This document shows, piece after piece, positions 21,515-28,904 of a stretch of 32,000 nucleotides of DNA (within the stretch, counting starts at the first letter, position 1; every line of letters begins with the position of its first letter). A program made the position numbers and the translations under genes. Origin of the DNA: Sinorhizobium meliloti (GTDB lineage Bacteria; Pseudomonadota; Alphaproteobacteria; Rhizobiales; Rhizobiaceae); assembly GCF_017876815.1 (NCBI RefSeq), contig NZ_JAGIOS010000002.1:690001-722000 (forward strand). Direction: 5' to 3'. A model generated the notes under the pieces. That model was not told where the DNA came from. It saw nothing but the letters and a program-made list of their open reading frames with translations, and made no database searches.

Positions 21515-22300
21515 ATGACTGATTTCACCCCCACCGAGATGATGACGATCGCCGCGGCGCGCGCGCTTTCCAACGACGACGTCTGCTTCGTCGGCATCGG
21601 CGCGCCGTCAGCCGCCTGCAATGTGGCGCGGCTGACGCATGCGCCGGATATCACGCTGATCTATGAGAGCGGCACCGTCGGCACCAAGCCCGACGTGCTG
21701 CCGCTCTCGATCGGCGACGGAGAGCTATGCGATACCGCGCTCTTCACCGTCTCGGTGCCGGAAATGTTCCGCTACTGGCTCCAGGGAGGCCGGATAACCA
21801 CGGGCTTCCTCGGCGGCGCGCAGATCGATCGTTTCGCCAATCTCAATACGACCGTCGTTGGCCCCTATGACCATCCCAAGGTGCGCCTGCCGGGAGGCGG
21901 CGGTGCGCCGGAAATCGCCTCCAATTGCGGCCGCATCTTCATCACCATGGCGCTGACGAAGCGCGGCTTCGTGGAGAGGCTGCCCTTCGTCACCTCCATG
22001 GGACACGGCGAAGGCGGCAATCATCGGGAGCGGCTCGGACTGACGACCAGCGGCCCGACCCGGGTCATCACGGATCTCTGCATTCTGGAGCCGGATCCGG
22101 AGACGAAGGAACTGACCGTCGTTTCCATGCACCCCGGCGTCGCTCGGGATCAGATCGCCGGAAATTGCGGCTGGCCGATCAAATTCGCGGAGACCGTCAT
22201 CGAAACACCGGCACCGACCGAGACCGAGCTGGTCGTTCTGCGCGACATCAACGCCCGCACCAAAAAGGCCCATAAGGCCGCGGGAAAGGAGGCAGCGTGA
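21515..22300 (+). CDS. pcaJ: 3-oxoadipate CoA-transferase subunit B
   Basis: CoA-transferase beta subunit, 12 nt after pcaI. Its stop overlaps the pcaF start. Confidence 0.88.
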   Translation: MTDFTPTEMMTIAAARALSNDDVCFVGIGAPSAACNVARLTHAPDITLIYESGTVGTKPDVLPLSIGDGELCDTALFTVSVPEMFRYWLQGGRITTGFLGGAQIDRFANLNTTVVGPYDHPKVRLPGGGGAPEIASNCGRIFITMALTKRGFVERLPFVTSMGHGEGGNHRERLGLTTSGPTRVITDLCILEPDPETKELTVVSMHPGVARDQIAGNCGWPIKFAETVIETPAPTETELVVLRDINARTKKAHKAAGKEAA

Positions 22301-23502
22301 TGCGCGAAGCCTATATCTGCGACTATATCCGCACCCCGATCGGCCGCTTCGGCGGCTCGCTCGCTTCGGTGCGCGCCGACGACCTCGGCGCCATACCGCT
22401 GAAGGCGCTGATGGACCGCAACAGGTCGGTCGACTGGGAAGCGGTCGATGACGTGATCTTCGGCTGCGCCAACCAGGCGGGCGAGGACAACCGCAACGTC
22501 GCACGCATGTCGCTGCTGCTTGCGGGGCTGCCCGTCGCCGTTCCCGGCACGACGATCAACCGGCTCTGCGGATCCGGAATGGACGCGGTGATTGCGGCCG
22601 CGCGGGCGATCAAATGCGGCGAGGCCGAGCTGATGATAGCCGGCGGCGTCGAATCCATGTCGCGGGCGCCTTTCGTGCTGCCGAAGGCCGAGAGCGCGTT
22701 TTCGCGCAACGCCGAAATTTACGACACGACGATCGGCTGGCGCTTCGTCAATCCGCTGATGAAGGCGCAATATGGCGTCGACTCGATGCCGGAGACCGGC
22801 GAGAACGTCGCCGAAGACTACAAGGTCTCGCGCGAGGACCAGGACGCCTTCGCCCTGCGCAGCCAGGCAAAGGCCGCGGCCGCCCAGGCGAACGGCCGCC
22901 TTGCGAGCGAGATCGTCGCCGTCACCATCCCCCAAAGGAAGGGTGGCCCGGTCGTCATCGACCGCGACGAGCATCCGCGCGCCACGACGATCGAGGCGCT
23001 CGCCGGGCTCAAGACACCCTTCCGGGAGGGCGGCACCGTCACCGCCGGCAACGCTTCGGGCGTCAACGACGGCGCTGCGGCGCTCATCATCGCCTCCGAG
23101 GAGGCTGCCAGAAAGCATGGGCTGCGACCCATGGCCCGCATCCTCGGGGGCGCTTCGGCCGGCGTGCCGCCGCGCATCATGGGCATGGGACCGGTGCCCG
23201 CCTCGCAGAGGCTCATGACGCGGATCGGCGCGACGCAAGATCGGTTCGACGTCATCGAGCTCAACGAGGCTTTTGCCAGCCAGGGGCTTGCGGTCCTGCG
23301 CGCGCTGGGAATCGCCGACGACGATCCCCGCGTCAACCGGAACGGCGGCGCCATCGCGCTCGGCCATCCGCTCGGCATGTCGGGTGCGCGCATCACCGGA
23401 ACGGCAGCGCTGGAGCTTGCCGAAACGGGTGGCCGCACCTCGCTCTCCACCATGTGCATCGGCGTCGGCCAGGGCATCGCGGTGGCGCTGGAGCGGGTGT
23501 AA
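22300..23502 (+). CDS. pcaF: Beta-ketoadipyl-CoA thiolase
   Basis: Thiolase motifs (..NRLCGSGMDA.., ..NGGAIALGHPLGMSGAR.., ..CIGVGQG..). ATG 22300 overlaps the pcaJ TGA; an alternative GTG start is at 22297. Confidence 0.93.
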   Translation: MREAYICDYIRTPIGRFGGSLASVRADDLGAIPLKALMDRNRSVDWEAVDDVIFGCANQAGEDNRNVARMSLLLAGLPVAVPGTTINRLCGSGMDAVIAAARAIKCGEAELMIAGGVESMSRAPFVLPKAESAFSRNAEIYDTTIGWRFVNPLMKAQYGVDSMPETGENVAEDYKVSREDQDAFALRSQAKAAAAQANGRLASEIVAVTIPQRKGGPVVIDRDEHPRATTIEALAGLKTPFREGGTVTAGNASGVNDGAAALIIASEEAARKHGLRPMARILGGASAGVPPRIMGMGPVPASQRLMTRIGATQDRFDVIELNEAFASQGLAVLRALGIADDDPRVNRNGGAIALGHPLGMSGARITGTAALELAETGGRTSLSTMCIGVGQGIAVALERV

Positions 23503-23516
23503 GGCGGCGATGCTTT

Positions 23517-23668
23517 CCCCTCCCCAACCCCTCGCCACAACGGGGAGGGGCTTACGTGCGGCACCGTTTCCGGCTCTGCGTCGAGGTCTCCCGAGGCGAA
23601 ACGTCGAAACTGGCAGGCCATTGCCGCGGGCACCGAGCCCCTCGCCCTTGTGGGAGGGGTTGGGGAGG
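23517..23668. repeat. RIME-like palindromic mosaic element. Two roughly 32-35-nt arms (23517-23551 and 23637-23668) are inverted copies, and each arm can also fold on itself.
   Basis: Left arm CCTCCCCAACCCCTCGCCACAACGGGGAGGGGC versus reverse complement of right arm CCTCCCCAACCCCTCCCACAAGGGCGAGGGGC. Lies between convergent pcaF and acyP. Confidence 0.6.
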
Positions 23669-23694
23669 AGTTCTGCAGTGCCCGAGATCATCCG

Positions 23695-23979
23695 CTACCG
23701 TGTAATGCGAAATCCCGCCGGCGCTTCGACGGAAGAAGCCTCCTCGCTCGCGACATCGGCGACGAAAGCGCCGGGCGGTCCTTTCCAGAAATGGTCAAGC
23801 ATTCTGCTGACGGCCCCGTCCGGCCCGGCGATGAGGGCGGTCACCGAGCCGTCGCTCTCGTTGCGAACCCAGCCGTCAAGGCCGAGCCTTTCGGCCTCCT
23901 CGCGTGTCCAGTCGCGAAAGCACACGCCCTGTACCCGTCCGGTAATCCTGACCAGAGCGGCCCTGCGGTCCTTCGTCAT
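23695..23979 (-). CDS. acyP: Acylphosphatase
   Basis: 94 aa with the signature ..VRITGRVQGVCFR... AAGGAGGG Shine-Dalgarno before ATG 23979. The track ORF start 24096 is an upstream extension. Confidence 0.88.
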   Translation of the reverse strand: MTKDRRAALVRITGRVQGVCFRDWTREEAERLGLDGWVRNESDGSVTALIAGPDGAVSRMLDHFWKGPPGAFVADVASEEASSVEAPAGFRITR

Positions 23980-24051
23980 GACGTTGCCCTCCTTTCCCTT
24001 TCGAATCTGGCGCATATGGCGGCTAAGGCAAGCGTCTTCCTGACGCTGCCG

Positions 24052-24077
24052 ATGCCCGACCTCGGGCATTTCTTTAT
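24052..24077 (+). terminator. Intrinsic-terminator-like hairpin ATGCCCGA-CC-TCGGGCAT followed by TTCTTTAT. Preceded by a second hairpin at 24027-24050.
   Basis: Stem and U-rich tail read directly on the plus strand. No plus-strand gene is evident upstream. Confidence 0.35.
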
Positions 24078-24103
24078 CAGCCGGAAAAAATTTCATTTTC
24101 GGT

Positions 24104-24133
24104 CTTGAAGATGCTGCACTGCAGCATTATTAT
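24104..24133 (+). promoter_or_regulatory. sigma70-like promoter of the sRNA (CTTGAA / TTGAAG-N17-TATTAT). Its spacer is a perfect 17-bp palindrome ATGCTGCAcTGCAGCAT (24111-24127).
   Basis: Hexamers and palindrome read directly. AT-rich UP-like tract upstream (24076-24100). Confidence 0.5.
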
Positions 24134-24139
24134 ATAACT

Positions 24140-24256
24140 GTCGATGGAACACTCCTCCTCCCAGTTCCATCGCGGGATCGGCAACCCTCCTCCTCCCAGT
24201 TGCCGGTCAGGATCGAAAGCCCGGCGCACCTCCTCCCGCGCCGGGTTTTCTCTTTC
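24140..24256 (+). ncRNA. Trans-acting small RNA of the CCUCCUCCC anti-Shine-Dalgarno class (alpha-r14/alpha-r35 NfeR1-like, also called 'cuckoo' / CcsR-like). Three hairpins each present CCUCCUCCC in the loop, and the third is the terminator.
   Basis: Hairpin 1: stem 24142-50/24164-72, motif in loop at 24154-62. Hairpin 2: stem 24176-85/24199-208, motif at 24189-97. Hairpin 3: CCCGGCGC/GCGCCGGG at 24220-27/24238-45, motif at 24229-37, followed by TTTTCTCTTTC. The 5' end is approximate, inferred from the promoter. Confidence 0.75.
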
Positions 24257-24348
24257 AGCCGAGGCATTGAGCCGGCGGCGATCCCGAATTCCGTTATCCT
24301 TACAAGACAACACCGCGGTAAGATCCGAAACTTGGCCGGCACATAGCT

Positions 24349-24377
24349 GGGAACATTTCCGGAGCTAGGGCATCCAA
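24349..24377 (+). promoter_or_regulatory. ECF-type promoter P1 (GGGAAC-N15-GCATCCAA) upstream of the ECF sigma gene; putative autoregulation
   Basis: Same 6-mer, same 15-nt spacing and same 8-mer as 25084-25112. TTTC follows GGGAACr in both copies. Confidence 0.55.
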
Positions 24378-24398
24378 TATCCGAGAAGGAGCCCGACC

Positions 24399-25082
24399 AT
24401 GCCTACCGCTGAAACCGACCTTTGCCTGAATGCGCCGCCACCTGCGCAGGACCTCGCCCGTTTCCGCGCGATCATGCAGGCGCACAACCGCAAGCTCTAC
24501 CGGATCGCCCGCAGCATCCTGCGCAACGACAGCGATGCGGAAGACGTGCTGCAGGAGGCATATGTCCGGGCCTTCACGCGCTTTGAGGATTTTCGCGGCG
24601 ATGCGGCGATCACGACCTGGCTCGCCCGCATCGTCATCAACGAGGCGCTCGGCCGCCTGCGGAAAAGACGGCGACAGATGAGACTGGCCAAGTACATGCG
24701 GCAGTCGCAAGAGGCGGAGATCATCGCCTTTCCCCTCAATTCAGGCATCAGCGATCCGGAAAAGACGATGGCACAGCGACAAATCCTCGATCTCGTCGAA
24801 AGGCTGACGGACGATCTCCCGGACACCTACCGCACCGTATTCGTGCTGCGCGTCATCGAAGGGCTCGACAACGAAGAGGCGGCCGCCCTGCTTGGCCTCA
24901 AACCGGAAACGGCACGCACAAGGCTGCACCGGGCGCGCCGCATCCTGAAAGAGCAGCTGGAGCGGCAGATCGGCCCGGTTCTGCTCGATGCCTTTCCTTT
25001 CGCGGGAAAGCGTTGCGAGCGTCTGACCGAGGCGGTTCTTGCCCGCATCTCGCCTCGGCCCCCGGAACCGGACGGAAAATAG
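24399..25082 (+). CDS. ECF-subfamily RNA polymerase sigma-70 factor
   Basis: Sigma2 region (..DAEDVLQEAYVRAF..TWLARIVINEALGRLRKRRR) and sigma4 region (..YRTVFVLRVIEGLDNEEAAALLGLKPETARTRLHRARRILKE). GAAGGAG Shine-Dalgarno. Confidence 0.92.
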   Translation: MPTAETDLCLNAPPPAQDLARFRAIMQAHNRKLYRIARSILRNDSDAEDVLQEAYVRAFTRFEDFRGDAAITTWLARIVINEALGRLRKRRRQMRLAKYMRQSQEAEIIAFPLNSGISDPEKTMAQRQILDLVERLTDDLPDTYRTVFVLRVIEGLDNEEAAALLGLKPETARTRLHRARRILKEQLERQIGPVLLDAFPFAGKRCERLTEAVLARISPRPPEPDGK

Positions 25083-25083
25083 C

Positions 25084-25112
25084 GGGAACGTTTCGAGCCG
25101 CGAAGCATCCAA
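25084..25112 (+). promoter_or_regulatory. ECF-type promoter P2 (GGGAAC-N15-GCATCCAA) upstream of the DUF4142-cupredoxin genes
   Basis: Starts 2 nt after the sigma gene stop codon. Identical motif and spacing to P1. Confidence 0.55.
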
Positions 25113-25160
25113 AGCATGTCGTTCAAACCAGGCTTTGATCTTCGAGGAAAGGAACATCCC

Positions 25161-25685
25161 ATGACTATCAAACTGACGACCGCAGCGGCCGCAATCGCCC
25201 TCCTCTTCAGCACCGGCGGGGCACTCGGCAACGACAAGCCGACCGACCCCCAAATCGCCCACATCGCCTACACTGCCGGCGTGCTCGACGTCGAAGCCGC
25301 CAAACAGGCAATCGCGACGTCGAAGAACAAGACCGTCGTCGAATTCGCCGAGAGCATGCTGCGCGACCACGAGTCGGTGAACAAGCAAGCCCTCGATCTC
25401 GTCAAGAAGCTCAACGTCACGCCCGAAGACAACGACACGAGCAAATCCCTCTCGCAAGCGGCCGAGGCGAAACGCCAGGAGCTGGCGAAGCTTAAGGGCG
25501 GGGAATTCGACAAGGCCTATATCGAACACGAGGTCGCCTACCACAAGCAGGTCAACGGCGCGCTGGAAACGCTGCTGATCCCGTCGGCTCAGAATGCCGA
25601 ACTCAAATCGCTGCTCGAGACCGGACTGAAGCTGTTCCAAGGACATCAGCAGCATGCCGAACACGTCGCGGCCGCATTGAAGTGA
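25161..25685 (+). CDS. DUF4142 domain-containing secreted protein
   Basis: Signal peptide MTIKLTTAAAAIALLFSTGGALG. Helical repeats with ..DHE..NKQA.. and ..YIEHEVAYHKQV.. are typical of DUF4142. ATG 25161 with GAGGAAAGGAA Shine-Dalgarno. Confidence 0.8.
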   Translation: MTIKLTTAAAAIALLFSTGGALGNDKPTDPQIAHIAYTAGVLDVEAAKQAIATSKNKTVVEFAESMLRDHESVNKQALDLVKKLNVTPEDNDTSKSLSQAAEAKRQELAKLKGGEFDKAYIEHEVAYHKQVNGALETLLIPSAQNAELKSLLETGLKLFQGHQQHAEHVAAALK

Positions 25686-26011
25686 GCGCGGCGATGTTCA
25701 TAACGCGAGCGGCAATTGTCTTATTGTCGATGGGAGCGGCCGCCGCCGCCGCTCCTTCGCAGGCGGAAACCATCCAGGTGTCGATCGATCGCCTCGTCTA
25801 CCTGCCCGCGGAGATCGAGGCGAAGGTGGGCGACGAGGTCGAGTGGATCAACAGGGATGCGCTCGTCCACACGGCGACCGTCGAAGGCGGCGCGGACGTG
25901 CTTCTGCCGGCGAACAAAACCGGCCGGCTGGTGCTTCAGGAAGCGGGCAGCTTCGATTATATCTGCCGCTACCATCCCAACATGAAGGGCCGCATCACCG
26001 TGCGGCCGTGA
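25682..26011 (+). CDS. Cupredoxin (type-1 copper, amicyanin-like ligand loop) with signal peptide
   Basis: ..VGDEVEWINRDALVHTA..FDYICRYHPNMKGRITV gives His plus a C-x2-H-x2-M ligand set. GTG 25682 overlaps the upstream stop (GTGA); an alternative ATG is at 25694. Confidence 0.82.
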   Translation: MSAAMFITRAAIVLLSMGAAAAAAPSQAETIQVSIDRLVYLPAEIEAKVGDEVEWINRDALVHTATVEGGADVLLPANKTGRLVLQEAGSFDYICRYHPNMKGRITVRP

Positions 26012-26017
26012 TCCGCA

Positions 26018-26047
26018 GCTCCCTCTCGCCCGCAGGCCGGAGGGAGC
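26018..26047. terminator. Hairpin GCTCCCTC-N14-GAGGGAGC between the convergent cupredoxin and ftsK-like genes
   Basis: 8-bp perfect stem read directly. No U-tract. Confidence 0.3.
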
Positions 26048-26063
26048 AGAAGCGACCGATAAC

Positions 26064-28904
26064 TCAGTCCAGATCGTCGCTTTCCGGCTTCGGCGCATTG
26101 TCGCGGTTGCCGTAGATGATCTCGCGCTTGCCGACATGGTTCGCCGGACCGACGAGACCGTCCTTCTCCATCCGTTCGACCAGCGAGGCGGCGCGGTTGT
26201 AGCCGATGCCGAGGCGGCGCTGGATGTAGGAGGTCGAGCACTTCTTGTCCCGCAGCACCACTTTCACCGCCTGATCGTAGAGCTCGTTGCCGTCTTCGGC
26301 GGCGATCGCGCTCTTGTCGAACACTGCGCCCTGATCCTCCTCGACCTCTTCCTCCTCTTCGTCCGCGGTCACCGTCTCGAGATATTCCGGACGCCCCTGC
26401 GTCTTCAGATGTGCGACCACATGTTCGACTTCCTGATCGGAAACAAACGGACCGTGGACGCGGGCGATGCGGCCGCCGCCGGCCATGTGCAGCATGTCGC
26501 CCTGGCCGAGGAGCTGTTCGGCCCCCTGCTCGCCGAGGATGGTGCGGCTGTCGATCTTGGAGGTCACCTGGAAGGAGATGCGGGTCGGGAAGTTCGCCTT
26601 GATCGTGCCGGTGATGACGTCGACCGAGGGACGCTGGGTCGCCATGATCAGGTGGATGCCTGCCGCACGCGCCATTTGCGCAAGCCGCTGGATCGCCCCT
26701 TCGATCTCCTTGCCGGCGACCATCATCAGGTCGGCCATCTCGTCGACGATGACGACGATATAGGGCATCGGCGAAAGGTCCATTTCCTGCTGCTCGAAGA
26801 GCGGCTCGCCGGTGCCCTTCTCGAAGCCGGTCTGCACCGTCGCGAGGATCGGCGCGCCCTTCTCGCGCGCGGCCGCCGCGCGCTGGTTGTAGCCGTCGAT
26901 GTTGCGCACACCGAGCCGCGACATCTTGCGATAGCGGTCCTCCATCTCGCGCACCGCCCATTTGAGGGCCATCACCGCCTTCTTCGGATCGGTGACGACG
27001 GGCGTCAGCAGATGCGGGATGCCGTCATAGACGGAGAGTTCGAGCATCTTCGGATCGACCATGATGAGCCGGCATTCTTCCGGCTTCAGCCGGTAGAGCA
27101 GCGACAGGATCATGGTGTTGATTGCAACCGACTTGCCCGAACCGGTGGTGCCGGCGACGAGCAGATGCGGCATCTTTGCGAGTTCGGCGATCACCGGCTC
27201 GCCGCCGATCGTCTTGCCGAGGCAGAGCGCCAGCTTGCAGCCGGTCTTCTGGAAATCGCCGGATTCGATCAGCTCGCGGAAATAGACGGTTTCGCGCGTC
27301 GCGTTCGGCAGCTCGATGCCGATGACGTTGCGGCCGGGCACGACAGCGACGCGGGCAGAGAGCGCCGACATCGAGCGGGCGATATCGTCGGCTAAGCCGA
27401 TGACGCGGGAGGATTTGACGCCCGGCGCGGGCTCGAATTCGTAAAGCGTGACGACAGGGCCGGGGCGGACATGGATGATCTCGCCCTTGACGCCGAAATC
27501 CTCGAGTACGCTTTCGAGCAATCCGGCATTCTGCTCGAGTTGCTCCTGGGTCATGAAGAAACCCTGGCCTTGCGGCGGTTCCTGCAGGAGCTCCTTCGAC
27601 GGAAACTCGTAGGCGTCGCCGCCCTGCAGCGGCTCGATGGCGCCGATCGGCGGCAGAGACGGCGACGAACGCTGTATCACGGCCGGCATGGTGATCGCCG
27701 CCCTGGTCACCGGCGCTTCGGGAGCCGGTTCGCTTGCGGGTACGATGGCAGGCTCGGCGAGCGCCGGGGCCGGTGTTTCGACGAACTGGTGGGCCGGAAG
27801 GGCGGCAGCCTCCGCGGCGGCCGGCTCAGCGGCGATATCCTGCGGCGCGGCCGTAACCGGTTCGGCAGTGGCGGGCTCGGGCCGCCGGCATTCCACCACC
27901 CGGAACAGCGAGCTTATCGCCGTGGGCGGCTGCGGCCGGATCTCGACAGGCATTGCAGCAACGATCTTCGGTGGCGAGACCTTCGGCGCGGCTGCGATCG
28001 GCGCGGGAATGCGCGCGGCTTCCTTCACAGGTTCCGTGACAGTCGGCGGAACAGCCGCGACTTCGAGCGGCATGAACTCGAAAAACGCAAAATCGGAAAG
28101 ATAGGCCAGGCGCGCGTCTGCCTGATGGGGCACGTCCTCCTCCACTGCGGCACTCTCGGGCGCAAGATTCGCGACGGGCAGTGCATGCGGAACCACAGGC
28201 ACTTCGTCCGTTACCGGCAGGGCTGTCGTTTCAGAAGTGGCGGGCCCTTCCTCCGCCACGGCCACGCTTTCGGTGATTGCCGGCTTGGTGACGCTCGCTT
28301 CCGGCGCCTGCGAGCGTGCAGCGCTCCAGGAGGGCAGTTGCTGCGTCAGCACACGGAGGAGCTCGGACGGACTGTAGGACGGCAGTTCCGTTTCGACCAC
28401 GGACGGAGCGGGCTCGGCCGGCACCACGTCCATCACCGTTTCGGCATCGGACGCTTCCGCCGCGGCTTCGTCGGCCTCAATCCGGCTTTCTTCGGGCGCC
28501 GGCGGGTGACGCTTCATGAGTTCGCGCTCGGGCGTACGCGTGAAGCGCACATTCGGCGACAGGAAGAAGTGGCTCTCCCAGCCCGGCTCGCCGGATAGGC
28601 CGGTGATCTCGGCAAGCGTGGGAAGCGGATCGCGCGTAGAGACGGTAACCTCGGCAGGAGCATAGGCGGAGCCGTGACCGTAGAGGCGCGCGGCGCGGCC
28701 TGCATATCCTGTCTCCTCGTCACGATGGCCGGGCGCGCGCCGCGGCGCTTCCGGTGCCTCGAACAGATGGTCGTGAGCGGCCGCCTCAGGCGCCGCCGGA
28801 ACATGCGCGGCACCTTGCGCAGCCGGATGCGGGTCCTCGTAATCATCCGCGTGATTTGCGTCGTACAAAGCTGCAGGCGAGAAATTTGTCCGGGGAATGC
28901 GCAT
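26064..28904 (-). CDS. ftsK: FtsK/SpoIIIE-family DNA translocase paralog. It has motor and gamma domains but no recognisable N-terminal transmembrane domain.
   Basis: Walker A GTTGSGKS, Walker [14 protein letters not shown]-terminal winged-helix gamma domain (..[25 protein letters not shown]..). The N-terminal 430 aa or so are Pro/Ala/Glu-rich with no hydrophobic helices. No Shine-Dalgarno before ATG 28904, so the start is uncertain. Confidence 0.88.

Follow-up and report, generated by a model that had tools for sequence, protein, structure and literature searches.

Identity of the Smr14B Locus

We analyzed a 32,000-nucleotide (nt) stretch of Sinorhizobium meliloti DNA (contig NZ_JAGIOS010000002.1, positions 690,001 to 722,000; hereafter, the window, numbered from its first letter) and concentrated on an element at 24104-24256, for which a small RNA (sRNA) with three loop-exposed anti-Shine-Dalgarno (aSD) motifs had been proposed from the letters alone. 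We found that the element is, with high confidence, the gene for Smr14B (SmelB161), a pSymB-borne paralog of the alphaproteobacterial ar14/'cuckoo' sRNA family. The following features make up the sRNA gene and its promoter:

24083-24099, + strand: candidate upstream (UP) element, the A/T-rich block GGAAAAAATTTCATTTT, whose GAAAAAnTTTC form is kept in the 12-ortholog consensus
24104-24110, + strand: -35 element (CTTGAA / TTGAAG), from the promoter scan; the same hexamer is given for SmelB161 in Schlüter 2013
24111-24127, no strand: candidate operator, the perfect 17-bp palindrome ATGCTGCA-C-TGCAGCAT, read from the sequence
24127-24133, + strand: -10 element (TTATTA / TATTAT), from the promoter scan and Schlüter 2013
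24139-24254, + strand: sRNA Smr14B = SmelB161, 116 nt, three-hairpin member of ar14/cuckoo (Rfam match 24136-24253; published ends mapped)
24142-24172, + strand: hairpin 1, 9-bp stem CGATGGAAC/GTTCCATCG with the aSD motif 24154-24162 in its loop (fold; covariation)
24176-24208, + strand: hairpin 2, 10-bp stem GATCGGCAAC/GTTGCCGGTC with the aSD motif 24189-24197 in its loop (fold)
24217-24255, + strand: hairpin 3, the Rho-independent terminator, stem (AAG)CCCGGCGC/GCGCCGGG(TTT) with the aSD motif 24229-24237 in its loop and an interrupted T-tract (fold; RNA-seq 3' end at 24254)

The assignment is based on sequence identity with strains in which this RNA has been mapped. Over positions 23600-25200, the window is 100% identical to pSymB of S. 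meliloti SM11 (NC_017326.1), and SM11 is in turn 98.1% identical to strain 2011 over the same interval. The segment carrying the promoter and the sRNA (24100-24260, 161 nt) matches positions 1605790-1605950 of pSymB of strain 1021 at 100% identity. There, SmelB161 was placed at 1605829-1605944 (+) as an RNA of 116 nt with its 3' end at 1605944, supported by 469 and 91 sequence reads; its predicted structure comprised three hairpins (Schlüter, 2010; PMC2873474, supplementary files 1 and 10). Its transcription start at 1605829 and the promoter CTTGAA-GATGCTGCACTGCAGCA-TTATTA were subsequently tabulated (Schlüter, 2013; PMC3616915, supplementary file 4). Transferred through the identical match, the published ends correspond to window positions 24139 and 24254. 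The same gene was named Smr14B, one of the six ar14 copies of S. meliloti and "encoded antisense to SMb20591" (del Val, 2012; PMC3346310), and SmelB161 is assigned to the 'cuckoo' family as its pSymB copy (Reinkensmeier and Giegerich, 2015; PMC4615179). The element in the window and Smr14B/SmelB161 of strains 1021/2011 are thus the same locus, alike in promoter, sRNA, acyP and rpoE8 neighbors, transcription start, 3' end and the three hairpins, and differ by strain only. The feature is real, yet already catalogued: it is an sRNA that has been published, named and mapped at both ends, and its host is a model organism. The original prediction had presented the locus as a discovery, which does not hold, as the RNA has been in the literature since 2010-2012.

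Structure and Conservation of the RNA

With both strands counted, the 32 kb contain exactly three copies of the 9-mer CCTCCTCCC, at 24154-62, 24189-97 and 24229-37, all on the + strand. Shuffled sequences contained 0.57 copies on average; three copies were reached in 1 of 100 shuffles and were never clustered. In the minimum free energy (MFE) fold of positions 24133-24256, three consecutive hairpins form, each displaying one CCTCCTCCC 9-mer in its loop. The fold is considerably more stable than expected (-57.1 kcal/mol, whereas shuffles averaged -32.8; z = -7.1), and not one of 200 shuffles equaled it. The core stem of hairpin 3, CCCGGCGC/GCGCCGGG at 24220-27 / 24238-45, is followed by the T-tract TTTTCTCTTTC. 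Our terminator scan, which accepts loops of 3-8 nt, did not call this hairpin because its loop measures 10 nt; we nevertheless retained it as the terminator, since the 3' end determined by RNA-seq in strain 2011 (PMC2873474) falls at window position 24254, within the T-tract.

We aligned the element across 12 species and found that the three stems, comprising 30 pairs, are paired in 99.7% of cells. Compensatory changes on both sides were observed at six pairs, of which four belong to hairpin 1 and two to hairpin 3. The observed covariation score was reached by 0 of 500 shuffles, and sliding the pairing partners by 1-3 columns lowered pairing to 25-43%. Within hairpin 1, both-side changes affect 4 of the 9 pairs, with 99.1% of cells paired. 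In hairpin 2, nine of the ten pairs never vary and the remaining one alternates between U-A and U-G; its stem is essentially the same in 13 species, unlike that of hairpin 1, which varies freely by compensatory substitution, and hairpin 2 may thus be under an extra constraint, e.g., as a protein-binding or processing site. The 9-mers are kept across the 12 species with few exceptions.

Taken together, a sigma-70-type promoter (CTTGAA-N17-TTATTA), a discrete 116-nt RNA, three hairpins exposing CCUCCUCCC and termination at hairpin 3 were each demonstrated either here or, for the identical sequence, in the literature. Most of what had been proposed for the element from the letters is therefore borne out: the three loop-displayed 9-mers lie at exactly the proposed positions and have no further copy in the window on either strand, the promoter-like TTGAAG-N17-TATTAT was recovered by the scan and is the one published for SmelB161 (PMC3616915), the published RNA of 116 nt (PMC2873474) agrees with the expected transcript of about 110-120 nt, and both the folding check (three-hairpin MFE structure, z = -7.1) and the covariation check, with stems and 9-mers retained in syntenic relatives, turned out positive. 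As for the 'textbook' intrinsic terminator, the terminator itself stands, with its mapped 3' end at 24254, but the epithet does not, given the 10-nt loop and the failure of the scan to flag it.

Family Assignment

We searched the window against all 4227 Rfam families and obtained a single above-threshold match, RF02344 (ar14), at 24136-24253 (+), with 108.5 bits vs. a gathering score of 58.8 (E = 2e-19) and covering model positions 1-123 of 123. The element shows the traits typical for ar14: three consecutive hairpins with CCUCCUCCC loops, the third acting as a Rho-independent terminator (as seen in the fold, the motif positions and the covariation), its own sigma-70-type promoter (scan performed here) giving a discrete transcript of approximately 115-125 nt (116 nt in the literature), and a host from the Rhizobiales (Rhizobiaceae, Phyllobacteriaceae or Brucellaceae), here S. 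meliloti. In a permissive search, the CcsR1 model (RF02791) aligned with hairpins 1-2 only and, with 30.1 bits, fell well short of its gathering score of 65.3, so that we rejected this membership. The same applies to ar35 (the Smr35B family), the model of which gave no match anywhere in the window at E <= 1. An sR44 small nucleolar RNA match at 1677-1738 (22.7 bits, E = 0.13) was regarded as noise. The placement of the element in the ar14/'cuckoo' aSD class by the original prediction, and the covariance-model search that it called for, are thus borne out by a full-length match; the likeness to alpha-r35, NfeR1 and CcsR, if taken as identity, is not, for the ar35 and CcsR1 models fail as above and NfeR1 is a chromosomal paralog.

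Members of the cuckoo family are built of modular hairpins with the CCUCCUCCC loop motif and, as described in PMC4615179, are mostly found in a neighborhood termed CIN1, beside the small gene OG1 of unknown function; another conserved neighborhood, CIN4, is located on Sinorhizobium plasmids. The element in the window is a three-hairpin variant with the same CCUCCUCCC loops. In contrast to CIN1 members, it is flanked by acyP and rpoE8, and this plasmid or chromid locus with its three-hairpin RNA proved to be conserved in Sinorhizobium (all 13 Sinorhizobium-clade loci, as well as pSymB-like replicons in PLSDB). The acyP-rpoE8 locus presumably corresponds to CIN4, judging by the description of the latter, which does not, in the part read, name the flanking genes. 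The CcsR1-4 RNAs of Rhodobacter sphaeroides (RSs0680a-d, RF02791) have in common with Smr14B the loop motif and the idea of an aSD seed. They are, however, organized as four tandem units of two hairpins each, unlike the three hairpins of Smr14B, and are co-transcribed with the upstream gene RSP_6037 (DUF1127 according to PMC8034643) from an RpoHI/HII promoter and then processed. Smr14B, on the other hand, has its own sigma-70-like promoter, its upstream gene is a divergent acylphosphatase, and co-transcription of the CcsR1 type does not apply.

In PLSDB, sequences similar to Smr14B were present in about 500 plasmid records, including 324 of Rhizobium, 151 of Sinorhizobium and 13 of Shinella; this search of a plasmid collection indicates that members of the family are very common on the plasmids and chromids of rhizobia. 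Nearly all the PLSDB rows listed had no annotated feature beneath the sRNA match, because the PLSDB tables carry no RNA genes. In the single annotated PLSDB record examined, only the flanking protein genes were entered at the locus, which is still left without an RNA feature by annotation pipelines.

Promoter Architecture and Comparison With NfeR1

The site TTGAAG-17-TATTAT at 24105-24133 was the sole promoter-like site recovered by the scan in 23500-25000. Across the 12 orthologs, the CTTG-A positions of the -35 element are invariant. Invariant positions are also kept in the -10 region, yet TATTAT becomes TATTGT or CATTGT in other species. Sequence beyond about -60 diverges quickly while the GAAAAAnTTTC block stays, and the A/T-rich block at 24083-24099 may, from its conservation, serve as a UP element. 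The palindrome ATGCTGCA-C-TGCAGCAT occupies the entire -35/-10 spacer between TTGAAG and TATTAT, and no further copy with <=3 mismatches was found in the window. Its half-sites, (y)GCTGC ... GCA(A/G)CA, are retained in all 12 orthologs, with a variable center. In the acyP-sRNA spacer, roughly 35 nt before the sRNA promoter, positions 24051-24070 (+) contain a terminator-like hairpin, GATGCCCGACCTCGGGCATT, with a T-rich tail, which S. medicae retains only in part.

Within ar14, NfeR1 (Smr14C2/SmelC397) is the one member whose function has been studied, and its targetome and a symbiotic phenotype are known. It possesses three redundant aSD motifs that pair with ribosome-binding sites and silence the respective mRNAs (PMC10746234; bioRxiv 10.1101/2025.11.14.688489). 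Like Smr14B, it forms three hairpins with CCUCCUCCC, the last being the terminator, is transcribed from a sigma-70 promoter into an RNA of approximately 120 nt and belongs to the same Rfam family; hence, the two RNAs likely share the same pairing chemistry at ribosome-binding sites. Nevertheless, NfeR1 is chromosomal and arranged in tandem with Smr14C3, whereas Smr14B is carried on pSymB and is the sole copy in the 32 kb. The promoter of NfeR1 contains an LsrB box (TGCA-N6-GCAT, -72 to -57) mediating activation and, in symbionts, an NtrC box (TGC-N11-GCA, -116 to -100) mediating repression (PMC10746234). Our pattern search detected neither TGCA-N6-GCAT nor TGC-N11-GCA between -220 and +5 of the window promoter, on which ground an NfeR1-type promoter was rejected. 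Among the orthologs, each pattern gave one off-position match (LsrB-type at -88 in locus L015, NtrC-type at -47 in locus L010). Instead of these boxes, Smr14B has the palindromic spacer, whose dyad (-28 to -12) includes TGCA-N5-GCAT, one base short of the LsrB box.

The regulation of Smr14B seems, judging by its promoter, to differ from that of NfeR1, possibly through a repressor acting at the palindrome. As the dyad spans the -35/-10 spacer, Smr14B is probably kept off by a repressor of its own, with induction in response to a signal other than that of NfeR1. A repressor bound to the -35/-10 dyad would block RNA polymerase, which would fit the silence of Smr14B in standard media. Once produced, and by extension from NfeR1, the RNA would use its three loops as redundant aSD seeds pairing in trans with the purine-rich ribosome-binding sites, and with some sites in the coding regions, of many mRNAs; this pairing would block translation and promote mRNA decay.

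Several points weigh against this account of Smr14B. The trans-acting mechanism is carried over from NfeR1 and, for Smr14B, would hold by analogy. On Northern blots of TY cultures in log or stationary phase, a Smr14B-specific probe detected nothing, and Smr14C2 was the only copy visible (del Val, 2012; PMC3346310); its expression must therefore be conditional or low, and the 469 SmelB161 reads derive from pooled stress RNA. The perfect palindrome is confined to S. meliloti and close relatives and, with protein binding at this site being presumed from the sequence, represents a candidate operator only. Moreover, the T-tract TTTTCTCTTTC is interrupted, so some read-through from Smr14B towards rpoE8 may occur.

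Genomic Neighborhood and Distribution of the Smr14B-rpoE8 Arrangement

The protein genes, promoter motifs and open reading frames (ORFs) surrounding or overlapping the sRNA are:

23695-23982, - strand: acyP (SMb20590), acylphosphatase, divergent from the sRNA (Pfam PF00708; annotated so in CP140955.1)
24077-24313, - strand: ORF opposite the sRNA, from the ORF list (Sm1021 SMb20591 annotation ~24077-24373)
24144-24368, + strand: PPPPS-containing ORF from the ORF list, overlapping the sRNA
24349-24377, + strand: ECF29-type promoter of rpoE8, GGGAAC-N15-GCATCCAA (motif of Lang 2018, present in the window)
24399-25082, + strand: rpoE8 (SMb20592), extracytoplasmic function (ECF) sigma factor of group ECF29 (Pfam Sigma70_r2, r4_2 and Sigma70_ECF; named in Lang 2018)
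25084-25112, strand not stated: second ECF29 motif, in the rpoE8-SMb20593 spacer and near-identical to the first (motif search; Lang 2018)

Three co-oriented genes follow the sRNA on its 3' side, encoding the ECF sigma factor, a DUF4142 protein and a cupredoxin; then comes FtsK on the - strand. On the other side, pcaR and pcaIJF lie past acyP. The sigma gene starts at 24399, i.e., 144 nt past the sRNA end, in good agreement with the co-oriented ECF sigma gene about 140 nt downstream that had been predicted. In strain 1021, the downstream genes are named rpoE8 (SMb20592, ECF29), SMb20593 and amcY; an ECF29 promoter, GGGAAC...GCATCCAA, is found directly 5' of rpoE8, and a second motif in the rpoE8-SMb20593 spacer (Lang, 2018; PMC6180224). 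The same study, in which the sRNA is not mentioned, overexpressed RpoE8 126-fold without finding a target, found no candidate anti-sigma factor, and mapped an acyP 5' end by rapid amplification of cDNA ends (5'-RACE) near window position 23995. Because rpoE8 has its own ECF29 promoter, the sRNA and the sigma gene are in all likelihood transcribed as separate units. For a second rpoE8 5' end, near window position 24332, no promoter motif was recognized (Lang, 2018; PMC6180224). Directly 5' of it, we observed a block, GGTAAGATCCGAA (24317-24333), conserved in S. meliloti, S. medicae and Ensifer sp. USDA 6670. The TAAGAT within this block could represent a weak -10 of the second 5' end, which could alternatively stem from processing of transcripts that read through from the sRNA. 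Farther downstream, at the amcY/ftsK junction, two overlapping candidate RNAs, SmelB162 (+) and SmelB163 (-), were reported at Sm1021 1607661-1607807 (Schlüter, 2010), corresponding to approximately 25971-26117; this region has no Rfam family match in the window.

In order to follow the arrangement across species, RpoE8 was aligned with 15 homologs and one genome per species was scanned; the 80 loci listed constitute a sample. Among the matches listed, 11 of 11 Sinorhizobium-clade loci (72-97% sigma identity) carry a cluster of 2-3 exact 9-mers ahead of the sigma gene and in its orientation, and S. fredii pSF45436b and S. meliloti 2011 pSymB have all three each. No 9-mer cluster was found upstream of rpoE8 in the 69 more distant loci among these matches, which include Mesorhizobium, Bradyrhizobium, Xanthobacteraceae, Rhizobium and Ensifer adhaerens. 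As divergent motifs could escape an exact search, we built a dedicated covariance model from 13 orthologs. Its full-length matches, at 129-150 bits, are confined to Sinorhizobium-clade rpoE8 loci, while the best score in the 69 distant loci was 15.5 bits (E = 0.38). Weak minus-strand matches of this model (14-25 bits) over the terminator hairpins of several loci overlap the + strand sRNA matches, and we discarded them as the palindromic terminator stem being scored in reverse.

Overall, the sRNA is located upstream of rpoE8 in 13 of 13 Sinorhizobium-clade loci besides the window. The ECF29 motif precedes rpoE8 in all 13 as well, and the motif of the rpoE8-SMb20593 spacer is present in 11 of them. 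Between the first 9-mer and the ECF29 promoter lie 146 to 250 nt, depending on the locus. In Ensifer sp. USDA 6670 (locus L008, ~2400-2450), the sRNA terminator is separated from the ECF29 promoter by a 51-nt inverted-repeat insertion, AAAGCCCTTCAGGGTTAAA...TTTAACCCTGAAGGGCT, which looks like a small mobile or repetitive hairpin element. Comparison of these loci indicates that the sRNA-rpoE8 adjacency is stable within the genus Sinorhizobium, that it does not belong to the sigma module as such and that its spacing is unconstrained. Such genus-restricted adjacency with loose spacing fits a 'cuckoo' copy landing once in the spacer and argues against an obligatory functional unit; the position by rpoE8 is consistent with a single acquisition in the Sinorhizobium lineage.

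Alternative Explanations

The conserved synteny raises the question of whether Smr14B acts specifically in trans on its neighbors (rpoE8, SMb20593, amcY or acyP) and is thereby the missing regulator of the orphan ECF29 module. We consider this unlikely, despite the conservation at the genus level. A duplex calculation, in which the three loop sequences were paired with start regions (-40 to +20), and which is crude in that target accessibility is ignored, gave the following values:

rpoE8 start region: -11.9 kcal/mol
SMb20593 start region: -10.4 kcal/mol
amcY start region: -10.7 kcal/mol
acyP start region (GGGAAAGGAGGG; 23983-24010, - strand): -20.3 kcal/mol, within the top 5% of window tiles
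pcaF start region (22257-22316): -22.9 kcal/mol
all 60-nt tiles of the window, mean: -12.2 kcal/mol

By this calculation, pairing with the start regions of rpoE8, SMb20593 and amcY is no better than the window background. The translation-initiation region of acyP pairs strongly, but neither this value nor that of pcaF is specific, because any strong Shine-Dalgarno sequence pairs with an aSD loop. Accordingly, loop-neighbor duplex energies were not taken as evidence in either direction.

The element might otherwise be a cis-acting leader or conditional terminator of rpoE8, where read-through of hairpin 3 would provide a sigma-independent input and the sRNA would be a by-product or a riboregulatory 5' module. 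Its co-orientation 144 nt upstream of rpoE8, the adjacency in 13 of 13 loci, the interrupted T-tract and the second rpoE8 5' end, if the latter is a processing site, would all be in line with this possibility, as would the fact that RpoE8 has no known anti-sigma factor or signal (Lang, 2018; PMC6180224). However, sequencing recovered a discrete RNA of 116 nt whose 3' end is defined and lies at the terminator, the 69 distant rpoE8 loci among the matches listed do without the element, and the distance between the sRNA and the ECF29 promoter is loose, one strain even tolerating the 51-nt insertion. Furthermore, the conserved TAAGAT block could be a -10 of the second 5' end in its own right, and family members elsewhere are stand-alone genes (PMC4615179). 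We therefore find a cis-acting role quite improbable and retain the reading of the element as the gene of a separate sRNA, Smr14B.

It is also rather implausible that Smr14B is a functional equivalent of NfeR1, with the same activation by LsrB, repression by NtrC, and role in nitrogen stress and symbiosis. The two RNAs share the family and identical 9-mer seeds, and the spacer is one base off an LsrB box. Yet, NfeR1 is the chromosomal Smr14C2/SmelC397, neither regulatory box is found in -220 to +5 of the Smr14B promoter, and the dyad lies at -28 to -12, not at -72 to -57. Smr14B was undetected where Smr14C2 was detected (PMC3346310), and deletion of nfeR1 alone gives phenotypes (PMC10746234), which implies that its paralogs do not fully substitute for it.

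Finally, that the locus codes for a protein, either SMb20591 on the - strand or the PPPPS ORF on the + strand, can practically be dismissed: open frames of 74-78 amino acids do overlap the region and SMb20591 is annotated in Sm1021 at 1605767-1606063, but neither ORF has a Pfam match, 1-3 frames per strand (3-5 of the 6 altogether) run through the sRNA without a stop in every species, so that the overlapping ORFs are a by-product of base composition, the substitutions are compensatory for the RNA stems, the minus ORF of SM11 (24077-24313) is shorter than the Sm1021 annotation (~24077-24373), and SMb20591 itself was judged a pseudogene (Lang, 2018; PMC6180224), in line with the prediction, which had called the PPPPS-containing ORFs at this locus spurious.

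Implications

Work published in 2010-2018 had already established the RNA with its ends, promoter and family, as well as the mis-annotated ORF lying opposite. To these, the present analysis adds a synteny with rpoE8 that is restricted to the genus, compensatory substitutions in hairpins 1 and 3, the absence of the NfeR1 boxes, the palindromic spacer and the lack of any special complementarity to rpoE8. A bolder view, supported by the conserved adjacency but one that we regard with considerable doubt, is that Smr14B provides the orphan ECF29 sigma factor RpoE8 with its missing regulatory input, having been captured in the Sinorhizobium ancestor, repressed at the palindrome and coupled to the sigma gene in cis or in trans. 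If this were true, induced Smr14B would exert its coupling either by partial read-through into rpoE8 or by acting on the acyP or rpoE8-SMb20593-amcY mRNAs. The six ar14 copies of S. meliloti share identical seeds, and function has been established for NfeR1 only. In this respect, the genus-restricted rpoE8 synteny and the palindromic promoter spacer offer concrete handles on the role of the silent paralog Smr14B.

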